In this document: positions 9,398 to 26,033 of the stretch, piece after piece | How positions within the stretch are numbered: the stretch's first letter is position 1 | Layout of the letters: each line of letters starts with the position of its first letter | Source of the DNA: Bacteroidota bacterium | Lineage (GTDB): Bacteria; Bacteroidota; Ignavibacteria; UBA10030 | Length of the DNA: 64,000 bases | Direction of reading: 5' to 3' | Assembly (NCBI GenBank): GCA_050015675.1 | Contig: JBEKAY010000005.1 | Span: forward strand, 52,641 to 116,640 | Translations under genes and position numbers: made by a program | Notes under the pieces: generated by a model | Told to the model about the DNA's origin: nothing | The model's database searches: none | What the model saw: the letters and a program-made list of their open reading frames with translations, nothing else

Positions 9398-11635
9398 TTA
9401 CACTATGTTCTTCTTTCGGTCTATCTTCTCAAGAATCTGGATCATAGTTTCAACATCTGATGTCGGAAGTTCGCATGTGTAGTTCTCGCAGATGTACACC
9501 ATTTGCTTGCCTCTCGCCAGGGAAAGATTTCCAAAGAACGGGACATGGCGACTTAAGAATTCCTGCCCTTCCGCGGCGTCTGCGAAAAGCATGATCTTAT
9601 TCGGCAGAAAGCGGGAATGGATCTCGTCCAGCATCTCACGTATAACCGGGTGTTTCCTGTTTCCAGCCAAGACTATCTGCATGGGTTTGGAGAGACTGAA
9701 ATCGACTGCGACAAGGAATTGAGGGAGAGCCTGAGGAATTTTCTCGATGTACTCGCCGAAACAAACGAGCGATTTTAATGCCATATCGCTGTAACGAACG
9801 CTTCCGACGATTTGCGACAATCGCAGAAGGTTCAGGACAGAAATGGAATTACCACTCGGCTCCGCACCGTCGTATGCTTCCTTCATTCGAATAAGTATAG
9901 TTGGATCCGTCCCGGGACTATCGAAGAATCCTCCGCGCTCGTTATCATAGAACGATGCGATCTGATCTTCCGTCAGCTTGATGGCTTTTTGAAGCCATTC
10001 GATTTGAAATGTTGCTTCGTAGAGATCAAGCAATCCCTGAATGAAAAATGCATAATCAGTGAGATGTGCATCATATTTTGCTTCCCCGTCCCGGTACCGG
10101 CGAAACAGTTTTCCAGTCGTCGGATGAGCAAGTCTCGTGAGTAAAAACCTGCTTGCTCGTTCGGCATCCTCGAGATACGATTCATCCCTCAGAACTTGAT
10201 AAGCCCGGGCGAAAGCTGAAATCATTAAACCGTTCCACGACAGCAAAATTTTATCGTCGAGATGCGGTCTCGGCCGCTGCTGACGTTTATCAAACAGTGT
10301 TGCTTTTGCCATATCGAGATGGGCTGCAACGTCTTCCACCTTCGCGCCAATGTGTCTTGCTGCTTCTTCGGCAGAGTGAGCCACAAAGAAAATATTCTCT
10401 CCGACAAATTCTTGTCTCGGATCGGATTGTACATTTCCTTCTTCTTCAATCCCGAAAATAAACTCTACAATTCCCGCTTCCTCTTTTGTCAGAAAGCGGT
10501 CGATCTCGCTTTTCTTCCAGATGTAGAACGCTCCCTCTTTTTTCTCTTCCGGATAAAATGGGGAGATTGCACTCTCCGCGTCTTCTGCTGAATAAAATCC
10601 TCCTTCCGGATGCATCAGTACGCGTTGAATATATTCCAGTACTTTGCGGGCTACTTGGGCAAACATCTGGTCGTGCGTGATTTGAAATGCATCGAGGTAG
10701 GAGAGAACAAGCTGAGCTTGATCGTAAAGCATCTTTTCAAAATGCGGCACGTGCCAGCGTTCGTCCGTCGAGTACCGGTGGAAACCGCCGCCGATCCGGT
10801 CGTATATTCCTCCTTCCGCCATCTTTTGCAACGTTGTCAGCGCCATGTCGAGCGCCGCAGTGTTGCCTGTCCGATGATAATATCGGAAAAGGAAATTAAG
10901 AACTGTGGGACGGGGGAATTTCGGTGCGTGACCGAATCCGCCGTAAGTTGCATCGTAACTTTTTGCGAATTCATCAAATCCGCGCTCGAGCATGCTCTCC
11001 GTCACCGTTTTGTCACTCAGAGGCGGGGCGGCAGATGATGCAAGGAATTGTCCAATGCGCTCGCCGCTTTCCAGAACTTTGGAACGCTCATTTGTCCATA
11101 CTTTGTGAATACGCTCGAGGATTTCCAAAAAACCGGGGTTGCCGGATTGACCGGTTGGTGGAATGTATGTCGCGGCGAAAAACGGCTTTCGCTCCGGTGT
11201 CATAAAAATAGACATTGGCCAACCGCCGCTTCCCGTCATCGCCTGGAGAGCTGTCATATAGATTTGATCGATGTCGGGACGTTCTTCCCGATCGACTTTG
11301 ATGCTGACAACCAAAAGGTTCATCAGGTCCGCGATGGATCGGTTCTCAAACACCTCCCGCTCCATGACATGGCACCAGTAACACGTCGAATACCCGATGG
11401 AGAGAAAGATCGGTTTGTCTTCCTTGCGGGCTTTTTCAAAAGCTTCATCCCCCCACGGATACCAATCGACAGGATTGAGCGCGTGCTGCAGCAGGTAGGG
11501 ACTTTTTTCCTGTCCGAGTCTATTTGCTTTTTTTTGTGATGCAATTATATGAATGGATTTATTTTGCTCAGTGTCTTCATCCAATAACCTCATAGTATGT
11601 TCCTTCTGAATGTGTATGGAGACTTTACGATTCAT
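9398..11635 (-). CDS. thioredoxin-domain protein of the DUF255 / YyaL type (thioredoxin fold plus alpha/alpha-toroid domain)
   Basis: '[57 protein letters not shown]' is the characteristic DUF255 N-terminus with its C-x-x-C. The long C-terminal region is helical. An alternative start is the ATG at 11593, preceded by AAGGA. Confidence 0.85.
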
Positions 11636-14431: not shown

Positions 14432-14713
14432 ATGGCACATTTAGCAAAAAAAGAAATCCTGCTCGTTCTGGCAGAATTAAACGGGTGGACGCTGCATGGA
14501 AACGAGATAAGGAAGAAATTTGTATTCGCCGATTTTGCCTGCGCCATAGGATTTGTCAATTCTGTCGCGCTCTACGCCGAACGCGCAAATCACCATCCGG
14601 ATATTGACATCCGCTGGAACACAATCACGCTTTCACTTTCCACACACAGCGAAGGCGGAATTACGGAAAAGGACATTTCTTTAGCGAAGAGGATCGATAC
14701 ACTTGCAGTTTAG
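14432..14713 (+). CDS. pterin-4-alpha-carbinolamine dehydratase (PCD/DCoH)
   Basis: 93 aa. 'F.DF..A..F...VA..AE..NHHPDI...WN.V...L.TH' is the PCD signature. Confidence 0.9.
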   Translation: MAHLAKKEILLVLAELNGWTLHGNEIRKKFVFADFACAIGFVNSVALYAERANHHPDIDIRWNTITLSLSTHSEGGITEKDISLAKRIDTLAV

Positions 14714-14933
14714 CCGTCCGCAATAAAAAAACGTGCGAATACCTTACGCTGGCAGAAGGAACTCATTTACTATTTCAGATGTTAAGTTTTATAGAAGAAA
14801 AAAAATAACAAGTGAACATGAAACCAGGAATGAAAAAATATAGTTTGGTACTCACCTGCGCGTGTCCCGGGAACATAGCGTATGCTCGCGAAGGTGTCGA
14901 TCCTTAAACGTTTTATGTGATGGTTGGAATTTG

Positions 14934-14968
14934 AGCCCTTCGTTGAGTTTATGATGAAGGGCTTTTTT
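14934..14968 (+). terminator. rho-independent terminator-like hairpin in the leader of the sulfur operon
   Basis: 8-bp stem AGCCCTTC (14934-14941) / GAAGGGCT (14956-14963) with a 14-nt loop, followed by a T6 run. It lies 221 nt after the PCD stop and 63 nt before the rhodanese ATG. Confidence 0.55.
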
Positions 14969-15030
14969 ATTGACCGGAATGTCGAACCATGAATATTTCA
15001 TCAAGTATAATTTTATAAAGGAGTAATGCT

Positions 15031-15882
15031 ATGGCAAACAATTATGTACATCCTGAAGTGCTCGTTGAAACGGAGTGGGTGAGTCAGCACCTGACTGACC
15101 CCAATATCCGGTTTGTAGAAGTTGATGTCGATACACACGCATATACTGAAGCTCATATTCCCGGCGCAGTCGGATGGAACTGGCAGACTCAACTCTCCGA
15201 TCAAGTTCGGCGCGACCTTGTTTCAAAGCTGGATCTGGAACTGCTGCTGGGAAAATCAGGAATTAACAATAGTACCACTGTTATTCTTTACGGAGACAAC
15301 AACAATTGGTTTGCGGCATGGGCATTCTGGCAGTTGAAAATATACGGCCACCAGGATGTGCGCATTATCAATGGAGGCCGGAAGAAATGGCTCAAAGAGG
15401 GAAGGGAAGTAACAACAGATGTTCCGACCGTTGAATGGAAAACGTACAAAGCAAAGGAGCCCGATCATTCGTTGCGTGCATATGTGCAGGAAGTATCATC
15501 TATATCCGACGATTCATGGTCATTGGTTGATGTTCGTTCAGCAGATGAATATTCCGGCAAAATACTATCTCCTCCAGGGCTTCCAGAGACATGCCAACGA
15601 GGAGGACATGTACCTGGTGCATATAATATTCCATGGGGGAAAAATGTCAACGAAGATGGCACGTTTAAATCGTTTGACAACTTGCGGACACTCTATGAAC
15701 CGCTGGGTATCACATCGAACAAAAATATTGTTGCGTATTGCCGCATCGGGGAACGATCCAGTCTGACCTGGTTTGTTCTGAAGTACCTGCTTGGATACAC
15801 AAAAGTTAAGAATTACGATGGCTCCTGGACAGAATGGGGAAATCTTGTCAATGCTCCGGTTACGCAAGGAGAACGACCATGA
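15031..15882 (+). CDS. thiosulfate/3-mercaptopyruvate sulfurtransferase (tandem rhodanese domains)
   Basis: 283 aa with two rhodanese repeats and the active-site loop 'CRIGERSS', as in mycobacterial CysA/SseB-type enzymes. AAGGAG lies before the ATG. Confidence 0.9.
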   Translation: MANNYVHPEVLVETEWVSQHLTDPNIRFVEVDVDTHAYTEAHIPGAVGWNWQTQLSDQVRRDLVSKLDLELLLGKSGINNSTTVILYGDNNNWFAAWAFWQLKIYGHQDVRIINGGRKKWLKEGREVTTDVPTVEWKTYKAKEPDHSLRAYVQEVSSISDDSWSLVDVRSADEYSGKILSPPGLPETCQRGGHVPGAYNIPWGKNVNEDGTFKSFDNLRTLYEPLGITSNKNIVAYCRIGERSSLTWFVLKYLLGYTKVKNYDGSWTEWGNLVNAPVTQGERP

Positions 15883-16118
15883 CGGTAGCACATTCATCTG
15901 ATTATCAAGAACGATGGGAATCGGTTCCACCGTTCCAGATTCATATAACAAGCTATAGGATTAATGATACATATTACTGCTCTGTGGATAATGTCGATCC
16001 CGGCGCAGTCATTGTTCGAACGAAGGGACAGGTACGGGATGAAGTTGAGTTGAAAGCTATAATGCGGGCAAAGGAACGATTAGAGTATTCCCGTCTTCGG
16101 TATGAAAAGGAAATTTGA
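15879..16118 (+). CDS. 79-aa protein of unknown function inside the sulfur operon
   Basis: The ATG at 15879 overlaps the rhodanese stop (ATGA), which suggests translational coupling. I recognise no motif. The track ORF from 15834 begins inside the rhodanese gene. Confidence 0.55.
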   Translation: MTVAHSSDYQERWESVPPFQIHITSYRINDTYYCSVDNVDPGAVIVRTKGQVRDEVELKAIMRAKERLEYSRLRYEKEI

Positions 16119-16140
16119 GCTAACAAACGGAAAATAAATC

Positions 16141-17115
16141 ATGACCTGGAAATCAAAAACCGACTCGTTTCCTGAAGTTCGCGAAACTTATTTGGAGCAA
16201 CGCATCCGCGATCATTCATCGGTGCTTGGCAACGTCGGCAACACACCTCTTTTGCGAATTCGAAATATCCCTATTCCGAATGACTATGTTCAGATCTATG
16301 CTAAGGCGGAATGGTTTAATCCCGGCGGTTCGATCAAAGACCGTCCTGCCTTGAACATGCTTCTGGAAGCCGAAAAGTCAGGAATGCTTACAAAGGAAAA
16401 AATCATCATCGATGCGACAAGCGGCAATACCGGCATCGCATATGCAATGATTGGAAGTGCGCTGGGATATAAAGTGGTTCTGGCGCTTCCGGCGAATGCA
16501 AGTCTGGAACGGAAACAAATGCTCCGTGCCTACGGTGCTGAGATCCTGGAAACGGATCCGCTCACCGGAACAGACGGAGCGCAACTGCACGTCAAAGAAA
16601 TTGTTGCCGCCCATCCCGACCAATATTTTTACCCTGATCAGTATAATAATCCGGCCAACTGGCTCGCGCATTACAACATAACGGCATGGGAAATTTGGAA
16701 TCAATCCAGGAATCGTATTACACATTTCGTTGCCGGGCTTGGAACGACAGGAACATTTATCGGAACAAGCCGGAGACTGAAAGAATTGGAACCGACTATT
16801 GTCTGTACATCGTTCGGACCCGATTCTCCGCTCCATGGGCTGGAAGGGCTAAAGCATTTACCTACGGCATTAGTCCCCGGTATCTACGATTCAGCTCTTG
16901 CAGACGAACATCTCACCGTCTCGACCGATGAAGCATATACCATGGTCAGACAATTGGCTCGGCAGGAAGGTTTATTTGTCGGAATTTCGAGCGGCGCAGC
17001 GCTTGCTGTTTCACTCAAGCTTGCAGCACGAATCGAGAGCGGTGTAATCGTTACGATTTTTCCTGACGGTGGTGCGCGATATAGCAGCGAACATTTTTGG
17101 AATGAAGGTGAATGA
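16141..17115 (+). CDS. cysM: PLP-dependent cysteine synthase, CysM/CysK family (probably sulfur-carrier dependent)
   Basis: Carries the PLP-lysine motif 'NPGGSIKDRPA', 'TSGNTGIA' and the 'GLGTTGTFIG' phosphate loop. Sits next to JAMM and Ubl-E1 genes, as for mycobacterial CysM. Confidence 0.85.
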   Translation: MTWKSKTDSFPEVRETYLEQRIRDHSSVLGNVGNTPLLRIRNIPIPNDYVQIYAKAEWFNPGGSIKDRPALNMLLEAEKSGMLTKEKIIIDATSGNTGIAYAMIGSALGYKVVLALPANASLERKQMLRAYGAEILETDPLTGTDGAQLHVKEIVAAHPDQYFYPDQYNNPANWLAHYNITAWEIWNQSRNRITHFVAGLGTTGTFIGTSRRLKELEPTIVCTSFGPDSPLHGLEGLKHLPTALVPGIYDSALADEHLTVSTDEAYTMVRQLARQEGLFVGISSGAALAVSLKLAARIESGVIVTIFPDGGARYSSEHFWNEGE

Positions 17116-17128
17116 AAAGGAAAATCAT

Positions 17129-17602
17129 ATGATACGATTATCAAAAAAGATTGTCGATAAGATTGAATATCACGCTGAACAAACGTACCCGGAAGAATGC
17201 TGCGGGATGATGTTGGGGTTCAACGAGAATGGTTTTCATTCAATAGAAGAAGTCATCAGGATCGACAACAGTCAAGATGAAAACCGCCGCCGCCGATTCT
17301 TCATCACGCCAGAGCAATACCGGCAGGCAGAGCAGCTTGCCAGGGAATGGAAAATGGATCTGTTAGGATTTTATCATTCCCATCCGGATCACCCCGCCGC
17401 TCCCTCGGCATTCGATACAGATCACGCACTGCCCTGGTTTACCTATATCATTGTCTCTGTGGGACAAGGCAAAGCAGCGGCGATGACTGCCTGGCTGTTA
17501 AATGAAGAACGTACTCAGTTTAATGAACGGATTATCATTGTTGAACCTTCACCAGTTTCATCTACTGCCCGGCAGGTTGCACACGCTTCGCACGGACTAT
17601 GA
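17129..17602 (+). CDS. JAMM/MPN+ metallopeptidase (Mec+-like)
   Basis: Carries 'EECCG' (catalytic Glu) and 'HSHPDHPAAPSAFD' (H-x-H-x7-S-x2-D). The ATG at 17129 is preceded by AAGGAAAA. Confidence 0.85.
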   Translation: MIRLSKKIVDKIEYHAEQTYPEECCGMMLGFNENGFHSIEEVIRIDNSQDENRRRRFFITPEQYRQAEQLAREWKMDLLGFYHSHPDHPAAPSAFDTDHALPWFTYIIVSVGQGKAAAMTAWLLNEERTQFNERIIIVEPSPVSSTARQVAHASHGL

Positions 17603-17635
17603 TAAAAAACGCACTTTTCTCATAAAGGAAACACT

Positions 17636-19084
17636 ATGTCGATCAAAGTATTTATTCCGACTCCCCTCCGGCCCTATACCGAGAAACAGGATATTGTTGA
17701 AGTAGAAGGGAAAACTGTAGAAGAAGCGCTGAAGAATCTCACATCAAAATACCGCCCGTTGCAGCAGCATCTTTATTCAGAACAAGGCTCGCTGCGCAGT
17801 TATGTCAATATCTATGTCAACGACAGCGATATTCGATATTTATCAAAAGAGAAAACGCCCGTGAAAGAAACGGATTCCATCAGTATTATTCCATCCATTG
17901 CAGGCGGAGTCGAAATAGCTGAAGCGGAGGTTGAAGAAGGAGTTCAACTGTCGAAAGAAGAAATCCTTCGCTACAGCCGGCATCTCATCATTCCTGAAGT
18001 AGGAATGAATGGACAGAAGAAATTAAAAGCTGCAAGTGTACTTCTCATCGGCGCAGGCGGACTTGGCTCGCCGCTGGCGCTGTATCTCGCTGCAGCAGGA
18101 GTAGGTAGAATCGGTATTGTGGACTTTGATGTTGTCGATGAAACCAACTTACAGCGCCAGATTATGCATACGACGAACGATATCGGAAGATCGAAACTTG
18201 AATCTGCCAGGGAATCAATCATAGAGATAAATCCTAATGTGAAAGTCGAAACATATCCAATACGTTTGTCATCAGACAATGCCCTGGAGCTGTTCAAGGA
18301 CTATGATGTCATTGTGGACGGCACGGACAATTTTCCAACACGCTATCTGGTCAACGATGCATGCGTACTGCTCGGCAAACCGAATGTGTACGGATCTATC
18401 TTCCGGTTTGATGGACAGGTGACTGTCTTTGATTCAAATCGTGGGCCATGCTATCGGTGTCTTTACCCGACACCACCTCCGCCCGGACTCGTTCCGAGCT
18501 GTGCAGAAGGAGGCGTGTTAGGAGTTCTGCCGGGAATTATCGGCACGCTTCAGGCATTGGAGACAATCAAGTTGATTCTTGGAGAAGGCGAACCACTCAT
18601 CGGGCGGCTCGTATTGTTCGACGCTCTCAAACTCAAGTTCCGTGAATTTACTCTTAAAAAGAATCCCGAGTGTCCGGTGTGCGGCACTGCTCCAACGATT
18701 CATCGGTTGATTGACTATGAACAATTTTGCGGAATAGAACCGCCCATCAAACCAAAATTTAATTTTGGCGCATCGGAAATTTCTGTGGAAGAATTAAAAA
18801 GCCGTTTGGACCATGGCGATGATCTCTATATTCTCGATGTGCGCGAGCCGAACGAGTACGAAATTGCAAACCTTGGCGGACACTTGATTCCATTAGCAGA
18901 ACTACCAGAACGCATATCCGAGCTCGATCCGGATAAAGAGATCATTGTCCATTGTAAATCCGGCGGAAGGAGTGCAAGAGCTGTGCGGTTTCTCCAAAAA
19001 GCGGGATTCGCAAACGCGAAGAACCTTGCCGGCGGTATCGACGCATGGGCTCAACGAATCGATCCTCGGGTACCCCGCTATTGA
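17636..19084 (+). CDS. fusion protein: MoaD/ThiS-like beta-grasp sulfur carrier + ThiF/MoeB E1-like adenylyltransferase + rhodanese domain (MoeZ-like)
   Basis: - Residues 1-91 end in '...SISIIPSIAGG' (GG encoded at 17903-17908).
- E1 part: 'LLIGAGGLGSPLALYLAAAGVG', 'DFDVVDETNLQRQ' and the zinc pairs 'CYRC' and 'CPVC'.
- C-terminal rhodanese with 'HCKSGGRSARA'. Confidence 0.9.
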   Translation: MSIKVFIPTPLRPYTEKQDIVEVEGKTVEEALKNLTSKYRPLQQHLYSEQGSLRSYVNIYVNDSDIRYLSKEKTPVKETDSISIIPSIAGGVEIAEAEVEEGVQLSKEEILRYSRHLIIPEVGMNGQKKLKAASVLLIGAGGLGSPLALYLAAAGVGRIGIVDFDVVDETNLQRQIMHTTNDIGRSKLESARESIIEINPNVKVETYPIRLSSDNALELFKDYDVIVDGTDNFPTRYLVNDACVLLGKPNVYGSIFRFDGQVTVFDSNRGPCYRCLYPTPPPPGLVPSCAEGGVLGVLPGIIGTLQALETIKLILGEGEPLIGRLVLFDALKLKFREFTLKKNPECPVCGTAPTIHRLIDYEQFCGIEPPIKPKFNFGASEISVEELKSRLDHGDDLYILDVREPNEYEIANLGGHLIPLAELPERISELDPDKEIIVHCKSGGRSARAVRFLQKAGFANAKNLAGGIDAWAQRIDPRVPRY

Positions 19085-19237: not shown

Positions 19238-21325
19238 ATGAGAACAAAAGTTATCCTATTAACGCTTTTATTGAACACATTACTATTCATTGATTCATTA
19301 GCTCAAAAAATGCCTCTCGTCTATGATGTTGAGAATACAGGTGCGGACTGTCCGATACCGTATTTGCCTTCATTCAACGAACTTCCTACCATCCAGGCTT
19401 TACCCGACCCGTTTGAGTGGGCCGATGGCAGAGGTCGCATCTCAAACTTCTTCGATTGGCGGTACCGGCGTGCTGAGATCAAAGCTCAGATCCAAAATTA
19501 TGAGATTGGACCCAAGCCAGCTGTTGATCCATCACAAGTTACTGCCAGTTACTCTGGTGGAACACTCACAGTGAATGTAACTGTGAATGGACAGACGCTC
19601 ACGCTGACTTCGCAAGTTATCCTCCCATCGGGGAGCGGCCCCTTCCCTGCAGTGATCGGTATGCTTCAAAGTATCCCGTCTACCATCTTTAGCAGTCGCA
19701 ATATTGCACAAATCACTTTCAACTATAATCAGGTAACGACTGATGGCAGCGCGAACAATACGAACCCCTACTACCGGCTTTACCCTTATCTTAACATTGA
19801 TAATACGGGACAATACAGCGCATGGGCTTGGGGAGTCAGCCGTATAATCGATGGCTTGGAATTGGTTCAGAATGTTCTCCCCATAGATCTAAAGCACATA
19901 GCCGTTTCCGGTTGCTCCCGTGGTGGCAAAATGGCACTCTTTGCCGGGGCGCTTGACGAGCGTGTTGCACTTACAATTGCCCAAGAGTCGGGTGGCGGTG
20001 GCGCCACGTCGTGGCGATACTCGCAGTCCGAGCCTAATGGTACCGTGGAAAAGATAGATAATACAGATCACAATTGGTTTATGAATTCCATGACCCAATT
20101 TTCCAGCAATAATGTTTCGTACCTCCCAGAGGATCATCATGAGTTAATGGCAATGTGTGCGCCCCGTGCGTTGTACGTTACGGCAAACCCGGATTATACA
20201 TGGCTGTCAAATCCGTCGTGCTACGTCTGTAGTAAGGCTTGTCAGCAGGTCTATAATACTCTTGGCATAGCCGATAGGTTCGGTTTTTCCATTGTCGGCG
20301 GACATCAGCACTGCCAGTTCCCGAGCAGCCAAATACCGGAAATTCAAGCCTTTGTGGATAAGTTCCTACTTGGCAAGGCAGGCGTAAGGACGAACGTCGC
20401 TACAACTCCGTATAATACCGACCTTTCCCGCTGGATTACGTGGACTACACCAGCACTTTCTAACGATACATCTTTTTTTGGATCGGCATCTTTAATCTAT
20501 CCTACGAATCTTCAAATAGGTGTGGATTCAAATATTACCGTTAAATGGACCACGGTAAAAGATGCACAAAAGTATTTTATCCAATTATCAATAGACCCGA
20601 CATTTACAACCATTGATAAGAGTGATTCAACGACTACAGATACTGTAAAAACATTCACCGGCTTATTAGAAAATAAAAAATACTATTGGCGTGTCCTAGT
20701 AAAAAGTACTGCTGGTTTAGGTCCATGGAGCGAACAATGGAGCTTTATCACAGAACTACCACCAGCTAAGCCGCAATTAGTTGATGCCATACCAATTCAA
20801 AATCAACCCTCTGTAACATTTAGGTGGAAACAAGTAAAAGACGCTGATCAATATTTTATCCAAGTATCTTACATGCAGAGCTTCGGTGCTTTAAATAATA
20901 GAGATTCTACAACATCAGATACCGTCAAAACTTTAACGGGCTTTTATGAAGGACAAAATTTCTATTGGAGAGTTCAAGCAAAAAATCTTGCGGGCTTTGG
21001 TCCATGGAGCGATGCATCGAATTTTACTGTAACTTCAGTTGTTAAAGAAGAAGAAATACCAACAGAGTATTCAATAAGTCAGAACTATCCCAACCCATTC
21101 AACCCGACTACAAAATTAAAATTTGCTTTGCCGCAAAGGTCGCTAACAAAACTGATTATTTACGATCTCCTTGGTAGAGAAGTACAGACCCTAATAAATA
21201 AAGAGCTAGAAGCGGGTTATCACGAAATTAATTTCGATGCAAACAAAATCCCAAGCGGAATCTATTTCTACAGAATTCAATCCGGAGATTTTATTCAGAC
21301 AAAGAAAATGATTCTAATCAAATAA
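19238..21325 (+). CDS. secreted CE15-type glucuronoyl esterase with two Fn3-like repeats and a T9SS C-terminal sorting domain
   Basis: - Signal peptide, then the CE15 nucleophile motif 'GCSRGGK' (19910-19930).
- Two ~90-aa repeats (about 20489-20752 and 20753-21031) sharing 'KW..VKDA..YFIQ.S......D..T.DT.KT.TG.......YWRV.......GPWS'.
- Tail 'QNYPNPFNP...IYDLLGREV...GIYFYRIQSGDFIQTKKMILIK'. Confidence 0.85.
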   Translation: MRTKVILLTLLLNTLLFIDSLAQKMPLVYDVENTGADCPIPYLPSFNELPTIQALPDPFEWADGRGRISNFFDWRYRRAEIKAQIQNYEIGPKPAVDPSQVTASYSGGTLTVNVTVNGQTLTLTSQVILPSGSGPFPAVIGMLQSIPSTIFSSRNIAQITFNYNQVTTDGSANNTNPYYRLYPYLNIDNTGQYSAWAWGVSRIIDGLELVQNVLPIDLKHIAVSGCSRGGKMALFAGALDERVALTIAQESGGGGATSWRYSQSEPNGTVEKIDNTDHNWFMNSMTQFSSNNVSYLPEDHHELMAMCAPRALYVTANPDYTWLSNPSCYVCSKACQQVYNTLGIADRFGFSIVGGHQHCQFPSSQIPEIQAFVDKFLLGKAGVRTNVATTPYNTDLSRWITWTTPALSNDTSFFGSASLIYPTNLQIGVDSNITVKWTTVKDAQKYFIQLSIDPTFTTIDKSDSTTTDTVKTFTGLLENKKYYWRVLVKSTAGLGPWSEQWSFITELPPAKPQLVDAIPIQNQPSVTFRWKQVKDADQYFIQVSYMQSFGALNNRDSTTSDTVKTLTGFYEGQNFYWRVQAKNLAGFGPWSDASNFTVTSVVKEEEIPTEYSISQNYPNPFNPTTKLKFALPQRSLTKLIIYDLLGREVQTLINKELEAGYHEINFDANKIPSGIYFYRIQSGDFIQTKKMILIK
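21080..21325 (+). repeat. T9SS C-terminal sorting-domain cassette, copy A
   Basis: By my codon-by-codon hand alignment it shows 36 mismatches in 246 nt against 25788..26033. The catalytic parts of the two genes are unrelated. Confidence 0.75.
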
Positions 21326-21653: not shown

Positions 21654-22052
21654 CTATCGGTGAGAAAATCGGGTTGAGTGTTCTGCAAGCCAAGATGAGA
21701 GTTGCGCTTTAGAGAGTTTACCTGATGCAAGAGTCATCATCATAACGTAGGATTCTTCTTCATTAGCAGATATTTCCCAACCGTTCTTTTGAAGGAAAAT
21801 GTCCATTAATACAAATGCGACTCTCTTATTCCCATCAACGAATGGATGATTCATACAAATATGGAATCCATTAGCGGCTGCTTTATCAAAAATTGTCCTA
21901 TGTGTATATTTTCCACGTATTGTCATTTTGGGCTGAACAAGCGCAGATTCCAAAAGATTCCTATCACGAAGTCCTTTTTCTCCGCCATATCGTTGCAATA
22001 AGTCCGTATGAATCGTGATGACAATCTCTTCAGGTATGAAATGAATGGACAT
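21654..22052 (-). CDS. doc: Doc (death-on-curing) / Fic-family toxin
   Basis: 132 aa with the Fic/Doc motif 'HPFVDGNKR'. Its start overlaps the antitoxin stop (TAATG). Confidence 0.9.
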   Translation of the reverse strand: MSIHFIPEEIVITIHTDLLQRYGGEKGLRDRNLLESALVQPKMTIRGKYTHRTIFDKAAANGFHICMNHPFVDGNKRVAFVLMDIFLQKNGWEISANEEESYVMMMTLASGKLSKAQLSSWLAEHSTRFSHR

Positions 22053-24434: not shown

Positions 24435-26033
24435 ATGAAAGAACAAAAAATGCATGCAAGAATATTCTTATTGATAGCATTACTCTTATTAACCACGAAC
24501 GTGTATTCACAAGATCCGAATTTTTACATTTTCCTCTGCTTCGGACAGTCAAACATGGAAGGTCAAGGAGCAATTCAAGCACAAGACAGGACAGAGGATA
24601 ATCGTTTCCAGGTTATGGAGGCTGTTGATTGTTCAAACCTGGGAAGGATAATGGGGTCCTGGTACACCGCTACTCCTCCGTTGTGCAGATGCTACAACGG
24701 CCTTAGCCCTGCCGATTATTTTGGCAGAACGATGGTTGCAAACCTTCCAGATAGCATCAGAGTAGGTGTTATCAATGTCTCTGTAGCCGGCTGCGGAATT
24801 GAACTGTTCGACAAAGATAATTATCAGGCATATGTAGCAACGGCTCCGTCGTGGATGATTGATATAATCAATTCATATGGCGGAAACCCCTATGCGCATC
24901 TTGTCCAAATCGCAAAATTGGCTCAGAGAGATGGTGTCATCAAGGGTATTCTGTTACATCAGGGTGAGTCGAATGTGGGTGATTACGCATGGCCTTCAAA
25001 AGTCAAGGGAGTGTACGACAACCTGATTACTGACCTTGGGCTTGACCTCACCAAAGTGCCTCTACTCGCAGGTGAAGTGGTGAATGCTGATCAGGGAGGA
25101 GCTTGCGCAAGTGTGAATTCTATAATTGCAACGCTACCCCAGACTATTCCCAATTCATACGTCATTTCTTCGAAAGGTTGCACGGATACAACGGACAATT
25201 TGCATTTTAATTCGGCGGGTTACAGAAGACTTGGAACACGGTATGGGATGAAAATGCTTTCATTATTAGGTTATGATCCAAATACTTATCTGGAAGCTGA
25301 ATGTGCGTTCGTTGGTAAGAAATGGGAAATAAAAGCTGATACCCAGGCTTCAAATGGAAAGTATGTAACGATCAAATCCGGTTTAAACAGTACTTCTGCA
25401 GCACCGACCGATGATTCAAGCAGCATTTATATTCCCTTTACGGTGTATGGTGATTCGACCTTTTACATATTTGCACGGTTGAATTGTCCAACCCGTAATG
25501 ACGATTCATACTGGGTAAAAATGGACTATGGAGAGTTTGTGAAGTGCGATTCATTGACGACAAGCGGGTGGCAGTGGTTGAAATTAGGAAGTTACAATCT
25601 TACGAATGGTGATCACGACCTTCTCATTGCTTATTGCGAAGATGGTGCCAAACTTGATAAAATCTGCATTTCAAGTTATGACTACACTCCAACGGGAACC
25701 GGTAACGTAGCCATAAACATTTGTAACGTTGACCCTACAACAAGTGTGTTAAATTCAATGGAAACACCTGATGGTTATGCATTGGAACAGAATTATCCGA
25801 ATCCATTCAATCCAGCGACAAAAATAAAATTTGCTTTGCCGTTAAGGTCATTAACAAAACTGAGTATTTACGATCTCCTGGGCAGAGAAGTACAGATACT
25901 TATAAATAAAGAGTTAGAAGCAGGCTATCACGAAATAAATTTCGATGCAAATAGTTTCCCAAGCGGAATTTATTTCTACAAAATTCAATCTGGAGATTTT
26001 ATTCAAACAAAAAAAATGGTTTTAATGAAGTAG
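24435..26033 (+). CDS. secreted SASA/CE6-like carbohydrate O-acetylesterase + carbohydrate-binding-like module + T9SS sorting domain
   Basis: Signal peptide, then 'FLCFGQSNMEGQG' and 'LLHQGESN' (sialate O-acetylesterase / acetylxylan esterase-type SGNH). A mid-region beta-sandwich-like segment ('EAECAFVGKKWEI...ASNGKYV') is followed by the T9SS tail. Confidence 0.8.
   Translation: MKEQKMHARIFLLIALLLLTTNVYSQDPNFYIFLCFGQSNMEGQGAIQAQDRTEDNRFQVMEAVDCSNLGRIMGSWYTATPPLCRCYNGLSPADYFGRTMVANLPDSIRVGVINVSVAGCGIELFDKDNYQAYVATAPSWMIDIINSYGGNPYAHLVQIAKLAQRDGVIKGILLHQGESNVGDYAWPSKVKGVYDNLITDLGLDLTKVPLLAGEVVNADQGGACASVNSIIATLPQTIPNSYVISSKGCTDTTDNLHFNSAGYRRLGTRYGMKMLSLLGYDPNTYLEAECAFVGKKWEIKADTQASNGKYVTIKSGLNSTSAAPTDDSSSIYIPFTVYGDSTFYIFARLNCPTRNDDSYWVKMDYGEFVKCDSLTTSGWQWLKLGSYNLTNGDHDLLIAYCEDGAKLDKICISSYDYTPTGTGNVAINICNVDPTTSVLNSMETPDGYALEQNYPNPFNPATKIKFALPLRSLTKLSIYDLLGREVQILINKELEAGYHEINFDANSFPSGIYFYKIQSGDFIQTKKMVLMK
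25788..26033 (+). repeat. T9SS C-terminal sorting-domain cassette, copy B
   Basis: See copy A (21080..21325). About 85 percent nucleotide identity by hand count. Confidence 0.75.

Follow-up and report, generated by a model that had tools for sequence, protein, structure and literature searches.

A putative protein-thiocarboxylate cysteine synthesis operon with an E1-fused CysO-like carrier and a predicted cysteine attenuator in a Bacteroidota bacterium of the lineage Ignavibacteria

We analysed a 64,000-nucleotide (nt) stretch of contig JBEKAY010000005.1 (assembly GCA_050015675.1; hereafter, the window) from a Bacteroidota bacterium of the lineage Ignavibacteria, and focused on an operon of five genes that occupies positions 15031-19084 on the + strand. 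This operon probably directs a cysteine-repressed, sulfide-independent and protein-thiocarboxylate-dependent synthesis of cysteine, and would represent a rearranged form of the CysO/CysM/Mec+/MoeZ route. Comparative evidence gives good support to the prediction of a protein-thiocarboxylate pathway whose carrier is fused. To our knowledge, protein-thiocarboxylate cysteine synthesis has been shown experimentally only in mycobacteria.

In the list of open reading frames (ORFs) of the window, all five genes run in the same direction, and an ATGA overlap at 15879-15882 followed by gaps of 22, 13 and 33 nt can be read off the sequence. Both this layout and the correspondence to the CysO/CysM/Mec+/MoeZ logic had been put forward in a first-pass annotation of this DNA. 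The layout matches in every detail, and the correspondence is supported by the presence of every component with intact motifs and by the CysO-like nature of the ubiquitin-like (Ubl) domain. The genes and their functional segments are as follows (aa, amino acids; PLP, pyridoxal phosphate).

15031-15882, + strand: tandem rhodanese (two Pfam Rhodanese domains; CysA2 / Thermus 1UAR type)
15879-16118, + strand: 79-aa protein with no Pfam match, the start of which overlaps the rhodanese stop codon (ATGA)
16141-17115, + strand: CysM-type PLP-dependent cysteine synthase (Pfam PALP)
17129-17602, + strand: JAMM/MPN+ zinc peptidase (Pfam Prok-JAB, 2.3e-23)
17636-19084, + strand: Ubl/E1/rhodanese fusion of 482 aa (Pfam ThiS at aa 7-91, ThiF at aa 113-348, Rhodanese at aa 383-473)
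17636-17908, + strand: CysO-like ubiquitin-fold carrier domain of the fusion (aa 1-91; Pfam ThiS; Gly90-Gly91 at nt 17903-17908)
17909-17944, + strand: linker after the GG, with the predicted JAMM cleavage site after Gly91 (alignment of 119 fusion proteins)
17945-19084, + strand: MoeZ/MoeB-type E1 adenylyltransferase with a C-terminal rhodanese domain (Pfam, NCBIfam and motifs)

All of the Pfam models concerned (Rhodanese, PALP, Prok-JAB, ThiS and ThiF) were matched, and the catalytic motifs were located intact in all four enzymes of the operon. No terminator-like site was found inside the operon on the + strand, and one is present just upstream, at 14933-14964. The five-gene order is repeated in other contigs with different flanking genes; loci from other contigs that were compared with the window operon are referred to by L-numbers (L001, L060 and so on). 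Because the gene order is conserved and a single attenuator lies upstream, co-transcription of the five genes is supported.

The Ubl domain at the N terminus of the fusion protein is, in its sequence, specifically CysO-like and not MoaD- or ThiS-like. Its best PDB match is Mycobacterium tuberculosis CysO (3dwg_C; residues 1-91 against 1-93, E-value 2.8e-15), the alignment ending at the GG, and the second is the ThiS/MoaD-family chain of 4n6e, which is also matched over its full length and ends at GG. The score was 59 bits against CysO and at most 26 bits against MoaD chains, with SAMP chains also scoring far lower. The tail of the domain, IPSIAGG, is invariant in 119 full-length fusion homologues, all 119 of which keep the GG, and it is followed by 12-20 residues that vary in sequence and length among these homologues until the conserved E1 domain begins. 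The remainder of the protein carries the E1 motifs GAGGLG (139-144), NLQRQ (171-175), CYRC (272-275) and CPVC (346-349) and the rhodanese active-site loop HCKSGGRS (439-446), with Pfam E-values of 3.3e-87 for ThiF and 5.4e-19 for Rhodanese. Among NCBIfam models, the E1 part scores 560 bits with PRK07411, 516 bits with the MoeZ model PRK07878 (cutoff 647) and 482 bits with PRK08762 (cutoff 449). The best 120 of 8000 scored matches to the fusion (at least 67% identity) possess the same three Pfam domains, and those that have been named are called MoeB; close homologues from Ignavibacteriales and Ignavibacteria metagenome-assembled genomes reach 89% identity, which puts the window in the same group.

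Adenylation by an E1 enzyme needs a free C-terminal carboxylate on the carrier. The GG of the carrier is internal to the 482-aa protein, and the fusion would therefore have to be cleaved behind Gly91. Such a cleavage is also suggested by the variable linker, the neighbouring JAMM gene and the precedent of M. tuberculosis MoaX, a fused MoaD-MoaE protein that must be cleaved after GG to work (PMC4326299). An obvious candidate protease is the JAMM peptidase encoded next to the fusion. Release of fused ThiS/MoaD domains by JAB peptidases was proposed in a 2006 paper by Iyer, Burroughs and Aravind (PMC1779556).

Alternatively, the fused Ubl might never be released and might serve as a docking or regulatory domain, the real substrate being a free carrier encoded elsewhere. 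Iyer et al. (PMC1779556) proposed such a role for ThiF proteins with an N-terminal Ubl in organisms that retain a stand-alone ThiS, and our search for a carrier gene covered the 64-kb window only. However, the domain has kept a complete CysO-like sequence together with its IPSIAGG tail, while the linker that follows is unconstrained. Furthermore, no free-standing ThiS/MoaD-like ORF ending in GG is present in the 64-kb window and no separate carrier gene in more than 15 copies of the operon, and the JAMM gene always adjoins the fusion. We consider an unreleased Ubl quite unlikely, and the earlier statement that the carrier is part of the E1 polypeptide, with no gene of its own, holds for the window. 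A Cys-rich ORF of 80 aa between the sirohaem synthase and CysM genes of L008 (L008:7299-7541, +) was considered as a hidden carrier and rejected; it does not end in GG, has no Pfam match, is not a Ubl and is possibly a zinc ribbon.

By analogy with the M. tuberculosis pathway and with E1/JAMM chemistry, the following cycle can be inferred. The CysA2-type rhodanese, aided by its 79-aa partner, would take sulfane sulfur from thiosulfate or 3-mercaptopyruvate and hold it as a persulfide on Cys237. The carrier would be made as the N-terminal domain of the E1 and freed by the JAMM cut after Gly91 as CysO-GG with a free carboxylate. The E1 domain would then adenylate Gly91, the persulfide on Cys440 of its own rhodanese domain would attack the adenylate, and reduction would yield CysO-COSH; in M. 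tuberculosis, CysO is sulfurated by MoeZR (PMC3227635). The CysM-type enzyme would combine the thiocarboxylate with aminoacrylate derived from O-acetylserine or O-phosphoserine, and after an S-to-N acyl shift, JAMM would hydrolyse CysO-Cys, so that cysteine is released and the carrier is regenerated. JAMM may act twice in this cycle, as a maturase that frees the CysO carrier from its own E1 and then as a hydrolase that releases cysteine. Support is weakest for the source of the sulfur upstream and for the step in which the tandem rhodanese (with the 79-aa protein) would pass it on to the E1 rhodanese.

The connection to cysteine was also found upstream of the genes. A leader peptide, an antiterminator and a terminator together occupy 14830-14968, ahead of the operon:

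14830-14907, + strand: leader-peptide ORF, MKKYSLVLTCACPGNIAYAREGVDP and a stop codon (alternative ATG at 14818)
14887-14898, + strand: region 2, CGCGAAGGTGTC (CGCGAAGG), predicted 5' strand of the antiterminator, within the last leader codons
14935-14968, + strand: intrinsic terminator, a hairpin (GCCCTTCGTT..GATGAAGGGC; -14.3 kcal/mol) with a T-run behind it

The leader of the window contains the Cys codons TGC (14857-14859) and TGT (14863-14865), and the 5' arm of the terminator, CCCTTCG, has its complement in region 2. The terminator hairpin, which ends 68 nt upstream of the rhodanese ATG, is part of a conserved leader and not the end of the upstream gene. When Cys-tRNA is scarce, the ribosome would stall at the leader Cys codons (14857-14865), region 2 would pair with the terminator 5' arm and transcription would enter the operon. 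When cysteine is ample, the ribosome would reach the leader stop codon and cover region 2, and the terminator would form. This predicted attenuator independently ties the operon to cysteine supply; it also identifies the gene at 15031 as the first structural one in the transcription unit.

A Cys-rich short ORF followed by a terminator is present at 13 distinct loci. The leader ORFs at these loci are 19-43 codons long and contain 2-8 Cys codons each, so that 57 of 405 codons (14%) are for Cys; the Cys core takes the form C-x-C, C-x-C-C or C-x-C-C-C, with both TGC and TGT in use. The hairpins (-11 to -22 kcal/mol, with a T-run) begin 25-49 nt after the leader stop codon and end 30-125 nt upstream of the first gene. 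This gene is that of the rhodanese at 10 loci, of CysM in L060 and of sulfite reductase in L004 and L008. To examine the antiterminator, we folded the part of the leader RNA that a ribosome stalling on the Cys codons (masked) would leave free downstream, omitting the 3' arm. The antiterminator formed in the minimum-free-energy fold in all 10 leaders tested, with duplex z-scores of -0.9 to -4.3 relative to dinucleotide shuffles; in the window, the duplex between region 2 and the 5' arm has a free energy of -11.2 kcal/mol against -6.6 +/- 1.9 in shuffles. Over nine aligned leaders, the antiterminator helix is 96% paired (31-61% with the partner slid) and the terminator helix 97% paired, slid controls for both helices giving 30-61%. 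Pairs that change on both sides number two in the terminator and one in the antiterminator. Since few pairs change on both sides, the attenuator is supported by conservation and geometry and not by strong covariation. As to geometry, region 2 lies 15-22 nt past the last core Cys codon and 7-23 nt ahead of the stop codon, as measured in the 8 leaders, out of 11, that have a CGCGAAGG-type region 2, and this spacing matches trp and his attenuators. L060 retains the nucleotides of region 2 in a different reading frame, which suggests that the RNA rather than the peptide tail is conserved there.

Rfam searches gave no match, either over the whole window at gathering thresholds or over 14650-15100 at E <= 1; an anti-hemB match of 15.7 bits in the leader region was rejected as a chance, terminator-like one, and the leader is therefore not a known riboswitch. 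We found no report of a terminator-type Cys attenuator in the literature searched here. Cys-rich leader peptides without terminators have been seen upstream of actinobacterial cys operons (PMC1262725), and mycobacterial poly-Cys leaderless short ORFs (sORFs), including one upstream of the cysA2 operon, act as translational attenuators (bioRxiv 10.1101/834739); the authors of the latter study stated in 2020 that cysteine attenuation mediated by upstream ORFs (uORFs) had not been described before. A terminator-type, ribosome-mediated Cys attenuator may be the standard switch of cysteine and sulfate-assimilation operons in Ignavibacteriota, Bacteroidota-related lineages and Kryptoniota.

Several further features of the leader region were observed. 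Many leader peptides end in (F/Y/A)REG(A/V)(G/D)P-stop (window 14887-14907, L030, L053, L035, L004 and L008), and the Pro-stop ending, in a tail that resembles RAGP of SecM, could slow termination and keep the ribosome on region 2. A motif, GGAACTCATTTA(C/T)(T/C)(A/G)TT, lies at 14758-14774 in the window and also in L050 and L053, just past the Pterin_4a gene; in these three related loci, it falls between the stop codon of the pterin-4a-carbinolamine dehydratase gene and the Cys leader and may be a candidate promoter or operator for the leader. The more distant loci L004, L008 and L035 have TTGACAAAA-N17-TA(T/A)CTT right upstream of the leader ATG instead.

The first gene of the operon, the tandem rhodanese gene, had been regarded as a distinctive feature. 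It does head the operon, but it is not a novelty of this lineage: from its sequence, the protein is an orthologue of mycobacterial CysA2, with PDB matches of 349 bits to 1uar and 316 bits to M. tuberculosis CysA2/CysA3 (3hwi, 3aax) and the active-site loop CRIGERS at aa 237-243. CysA2 is reported to use both thiosulfate and 3-mercaptopyruvate (PMC6856128). The 79-aa ORF that follows is not an orphan. By homology, it belongs to a real gene family: its close homologues form 43 clusters, a profile search (E <= 1e-3) yields 280 clusters at 50% identity, and nearly all members are 65-110 aa long. It pairs with the rhodanese, not with CysM or E1, across about ten phyla. Specifically, the gene lies directly 3' of the rhodanese gene in approximately 21 of 26 loci drawn from one-genome-per-species contigs; the lineages include Ignavibacteriota, Kryptoniota, Bacteroidota, Dehalococcoidia, Myxococcota, Acidobacteriota, Elusimicrobia and Alphaproteobacteria, and the rhodanese is 60-75% identical among these loci. 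The CysM-JAB-fusion genes come after the pair only in loci of the Ignavibacteriota/Bacteroidota type. In L012 and L055, the pair is situated between the genes for O-acetylhomoserine sulfhydrylase and MetX, with a SAM-I riboswitch also upstream in L012, and in L004 and L008, it comes after the sulfite reductase gene. These contexts indicate that the pair is a recurrent sulfur-supply module of sulfur amino-acid operons.

The AlphaFold2 model of the 79-aa protein (pLDDT 87.7) predicts four beta-strands followed by a long helix, and the protein carries a conserved C34-x-VDNVDPGA motif. No match was found in Pfam, NCBIfam or the PDB; a Foldseek search of the model against the PDB returned nothing under E 0.1, with TM-scores below 0.5, and Pfam at E <= 10 gave only scattered chance matches for all 27 family members. 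Cys34 is invariant in the close clade. Family-wide, however, it is replaced in 19% of members, and 22 of 150 members of the wider family have no cysteine at all, which weakens an obligate role as a persulfide carrier via Cys34. A binding or activating role seems at least as likely as a persulfide relay and would resemble that of the SufE-like protein Rv3284, which binds and activates SseA (PMC12375888). The 79-aa protein may represent a new and phylogenetically widespread partner of CysA2-type rhodaneses, with a role in channelling or gating sulfane sulfur towards the synthesis of sulfur amino acids.

In Streptomyces and Tsukamurella, the orthologous rhodanese gene is followed by a DUF1416 gene, and the first two plasmid matches have no small gene downstream. 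The possibility that the 79-aa family is a divergent DUF1416/SseC (PF07210-type) family was rejected, with an hhalign probability of 0.1% against two annotated DUF1416 proteins. Two tandem genes of the 79-aa family follow the rhodanese gene in L015, L019, L025, L027, L046 and L048 (Myxococcota, Proteobacteria and metagenome contigs), and the database proteins P0167 (176 aa) and P0174 (122 aa) each contain two stretches that match the family.

The three remaining genes, encoding the CysM-type enzyme, the JAB peptidase and the fusion, form a trio that is conserved in many loci of Ignavibacteriota, Bacteroidota and Kryptoniota (L001, L005-L008, L010, L030, L035, L050-L054 and L060-L062). A metagenome scan returned just 20 loci, most of them short. 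The following arrangements were found:

L060: trio alone
Window, L001, L005-L007, L010, L030 and L050-L054: trio after the rhodanese gene and the 79-aa gene
L008, L035, L061 and L062: trio within longer operons
L061 and L062: CysE-like, CysK, ATP sulfurylase/APS kinase, sirohaem synthase, CysM-type, JAB, fusion
L035: rhodanese, small protein, CysE-like, CysK, CysM-type, JAB, fusion

The JAMM motif is complete (E22...H83-S-H85-x7-S93-x2-D96), with a PDB match to 2kcq (120 bits), and the adjacency of its gene to those of CysM and the carrier fusion is conserved across loci. The CysM-type enzyme contains the PLP lysine in SIKDR (aa 64-68) and the loops TSGNTG and GTTGT. The idea that it might group with ordinary CysK enzymes did not find support: the protein of the window scores 351 bits with TIGR01138 (cysM) against 274 bits with TIGR01139 (cysK), and it is 72-74% identical to its JAB-linked paralogues but 37% identical to the CysK of the L061 and L062 operons. 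For the JAB-linked PALP enzymes as a group, the best model is cysM, with scores under the threshold, and identities to co-encoded CysK proteins are 37-40%. The CysK proteins of L035, L061 and L062, in contrast, score 403-407 bits and so exceed the 351 bits that NCBI sets as its equivalog cutoff for cysK. By these sequence comparisons, the JAB-linked CysM-type enzyme is an orthologous group separate from CysK, and it is a distinct paralogue because the trio sometimes adjoins true CysE and CysK genes. Since CysE-like genes adjoin in related loci, O-acetylserine is at least as likely an acceptor as O-phosphoserine. The JAB-linked enzymes of the window (16141-16230), L060, L061, L062 and L035 also have a poorly conserved N-terminal extension of 20-45 residues, which neither E. 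coli CysM nor the neighbouring CysK proteins possess.

Component identities, motifs, linkage, the CysO-like domain with its invariant GG, the CysM/CysK split and the mutually exclusive leader helices were all computed directly. Several points nevertheless weigh against the proposed pathway. In this lineage, the response to cysteine is inferred, and so are the cleavage, the sulfur donor and the chemistry of each step. A free CysO, MoaD or ThiS gene may lie outside the 64-kb window. The antiterminator is backed mainly by conservation, with a single both-side pair change and weak covariation; the duplex z-scores are weak in 3 of the 10 leaders, and the leader of the window itself has just two Cys codons. 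In addition, Cys34 of the 79-aa protein is no more than 81% conserved family-wide. Two further points concern enzyme assignment. The E1 part scores above the NCBI MoeB equivalog cutoff (PRK08762), and it may therefore also, or instead, serve molybdopterin synthesis. CysM is nearer to Salmonella and E. coli CysM (2jc3 and 2bhs; 226-229 bits) than to M. tuberculosis CysM (3dki; 177 bits); it could therefore use thiosulfate or sulfide directly, and the use of O-phosphoserine is not implied.

The last two points are what would be expected if CysM were an ordinary E. coli-type enzyme that acts on O-acetylserine and thiosulfate or sulfide, with the rhodanese handling thiosulfate, while the Ubl-E1-rhodanese protein and JAMM served molybdopterin, thiamine or tRNA thiolation and were merely co-regulated. 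A MoeB-type role of the E1 would also agree with the names given to its homologues by NCBI and with the dual function of M. tuberculosis MoeZR, which serves both the molybdenum cofactor (Moco) and cysteine (PMC3227635). However, the Ubl domain scores as CysO-like, far above the MoaD chains. The genes moaA/C/E and thi are absent from all related loci examined, and no moa gene occurs in the window, so that the JAMM/E1 pair is not placed in molybdopterin or thiamine clusters. According to PMC1779556, classical Moco and thiamine operons lack JAB peptidases. Moreover, the genes for CysM, JAB and the fusion always stay side by side, also where a CysE-CysK pair covers the sulfide route. We therefore regard an ordinary CysM with an unrelated E1 as unlikely and prefer the protein-thiocarboxylate pathway.

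A further explanation is that the genes constitute a system for Ubl conjugation or anti-phage defence (SAMP/TtuB, CBASS Cap2-Cap3 or Bil), in which the Ubl would be attached to target lysines and removed by JAMM. PADLOC gave weak matches for JAB (at most 34 bits) and for an E1-E2 protein (at most 65 bits), and two NCBIfam models were matched below threshold: SAMP1 (51.7 bits against a cutoff of 60) and desampylase (67 bits against 130). The PADLOC matches, however, span only the Rossmann core of the E1, and the E2 region and an effector are absent; the defence-system reading was rejected on this basis. The E1 also has a rhodanese domain, which Iyer et al. (PMC1779556) report as never present in conjugation-type operons, and the operon sits with cysteine and sulfate-assimilation genes, under a Cys attenuator. 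A conjugation or defence function thus appears very improbable beside the synthesis of cysteine on a protein carrier.

Other features were noted around the operon and its relatives. SAM-I riboswitches (RF00162) were detected at L008:1014-1127 (90.7 bits) and L012:2617-2736 (78.8 bits), upstream of O-acetylhomoserine-sulfhydrylase-like genes and near the rhodanese/small-protein pair. The riboswitch of L008 precedes the MetY-like gene only, and a separate Cys attenuator follows (leader 2630-2734, terminator 2762-2788), which heads the operon from sulfite reductase through the fusion. A gene for a Thioredox_DsbH (DUF255) protein of 735-745 aa lies a few kb upstream of the operon (window 9398-11635, -; L001:2848-5073, -; L053:1-181, -), with SodC and pterin-4a dehydratase genes intervening in closer relatives; this looks like local synteny of redox-related genes. 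Downstream of the operon, the window contains a glucuronyl esterase gene with fn3 repeats (19238-21325, +) and a SASA-type carbohydrate esterase gene (24435-26033, +), both products of which bear type IX secretion C-terminal sorting domains, fitting the Fibrobacterota-Chlorobiota-Bacteroidota (FCB) group. A 132-aa Fic/DOC-family protein (21654-22052, -; Pfam 7.6e-19) is possibly the toxin of a toxin-antitoxin pair. In L001, a reverse-transcriptase-Cas1 fusion gene (L001:14636-16225, -) and Cas2 are located approximately 3.5 kb downstream of the operon; they are absent from the window.

The pathway itself is not new; the operon type was predicted in 2006, as was release by JAB, and the fusion is widespread in databases under the misleading name MoeB. 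What is new here is the evidence that the fused domain is of the CysO type and cleavage-ready, the terminator-type Cys attenuator at 13 loci, and the 79-aa partner found across phyla. That the attenuator, a JAMM acting twice and the 79-aa rhodanese partner are together new is possible, and we would put it slightly short of an even chance. The locus and its relatives suggest a mainstream, cysteine-regulated route in Ignavibacteriota, Bacteroidota and Kryptoniota that has been masked by 'MoeB' annotations. The fused carrier would provide a clean test case for one bacterial JAMM that both matures a Ubl and removes its cargo, and eukaryotic deubiquitinases follow the same dual logic. A Cys leader with a terminator fills a gap among amino-acid attenuators, and its signature offers a simple way to find cysteine regulons in uncultured bacteria. 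In addition, the 79-aa family (280 clusters, no Pfam model) represents an unnamed partner of a very widespread sulfurtransferase.

Among known systems, the pathway of M. tuberculosis, consisting of CysO (Rv1335), CysM (Rv1336), Mec+ (Rv1334) and MoeZR (Rv3206c), comprises the same four functions, and its carrier aligns with the Ubl domain end to end. The present operon differs in that the carrier is fused to the N terminus of the E1, which makes a maturation cut after the GG necessary, and in that the E1 gene belongs to the operon, whereas MoeZR is encoded elsewhere. It also includes the CysA2-type rhodanese and the 79-aa protein, and its CysM is nearer to that of E. coli, with O-acetylserine or O-phosphoserine as the possible acceptor. 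Operon type 4c of Iyer, Burroughs and Aravind (2006; PMC1779556), which is known from Salinibacter, Chloroflexus and others, has the same gene set of ThiS/MoaD, E1-rhodanese, JAB and cysteine synthase. In the passages of that paper considered here, however, the Ubl is listed as a separate gene, and there is no mention of a triple fusion of Ubl, E1 and rhodanese, of a module formed by rhodanese and 79-aa protein, or of a Cys attenuator. M. tuberculosis MoaX (PMC4326299) likewise has an N-terminal carrier Ubl that needs a cut after GG, although its fusion partner is a synthase subunit and not an E1, and its protease has no assigned gene, whereas the JAMM gene adjoins the fusion here. In actinobacteria, CysA2-SseC (DUF1416) and SseA-Rv3284 (SufE-like) show the same arrangement of a tandem rhodanese gene directly followed by a small-protein gene; the 79-aa family has no detectable homology to DUF1416 and no Pfam match, SufE included. 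Finally, the polycysteine sORFs Ms5788A and Rv0815A (bioRxiv 10.1101/834739) are also Cys-rich uORFs placed before an operon with a CysA2 rhodanese. They act on translation via sequestration of the Shine-Dalgarno sequence, without a terminator, whereas the leader described here resembles the trp and his attenuators in having a classical antiterminator/terminator pair with a T-run.

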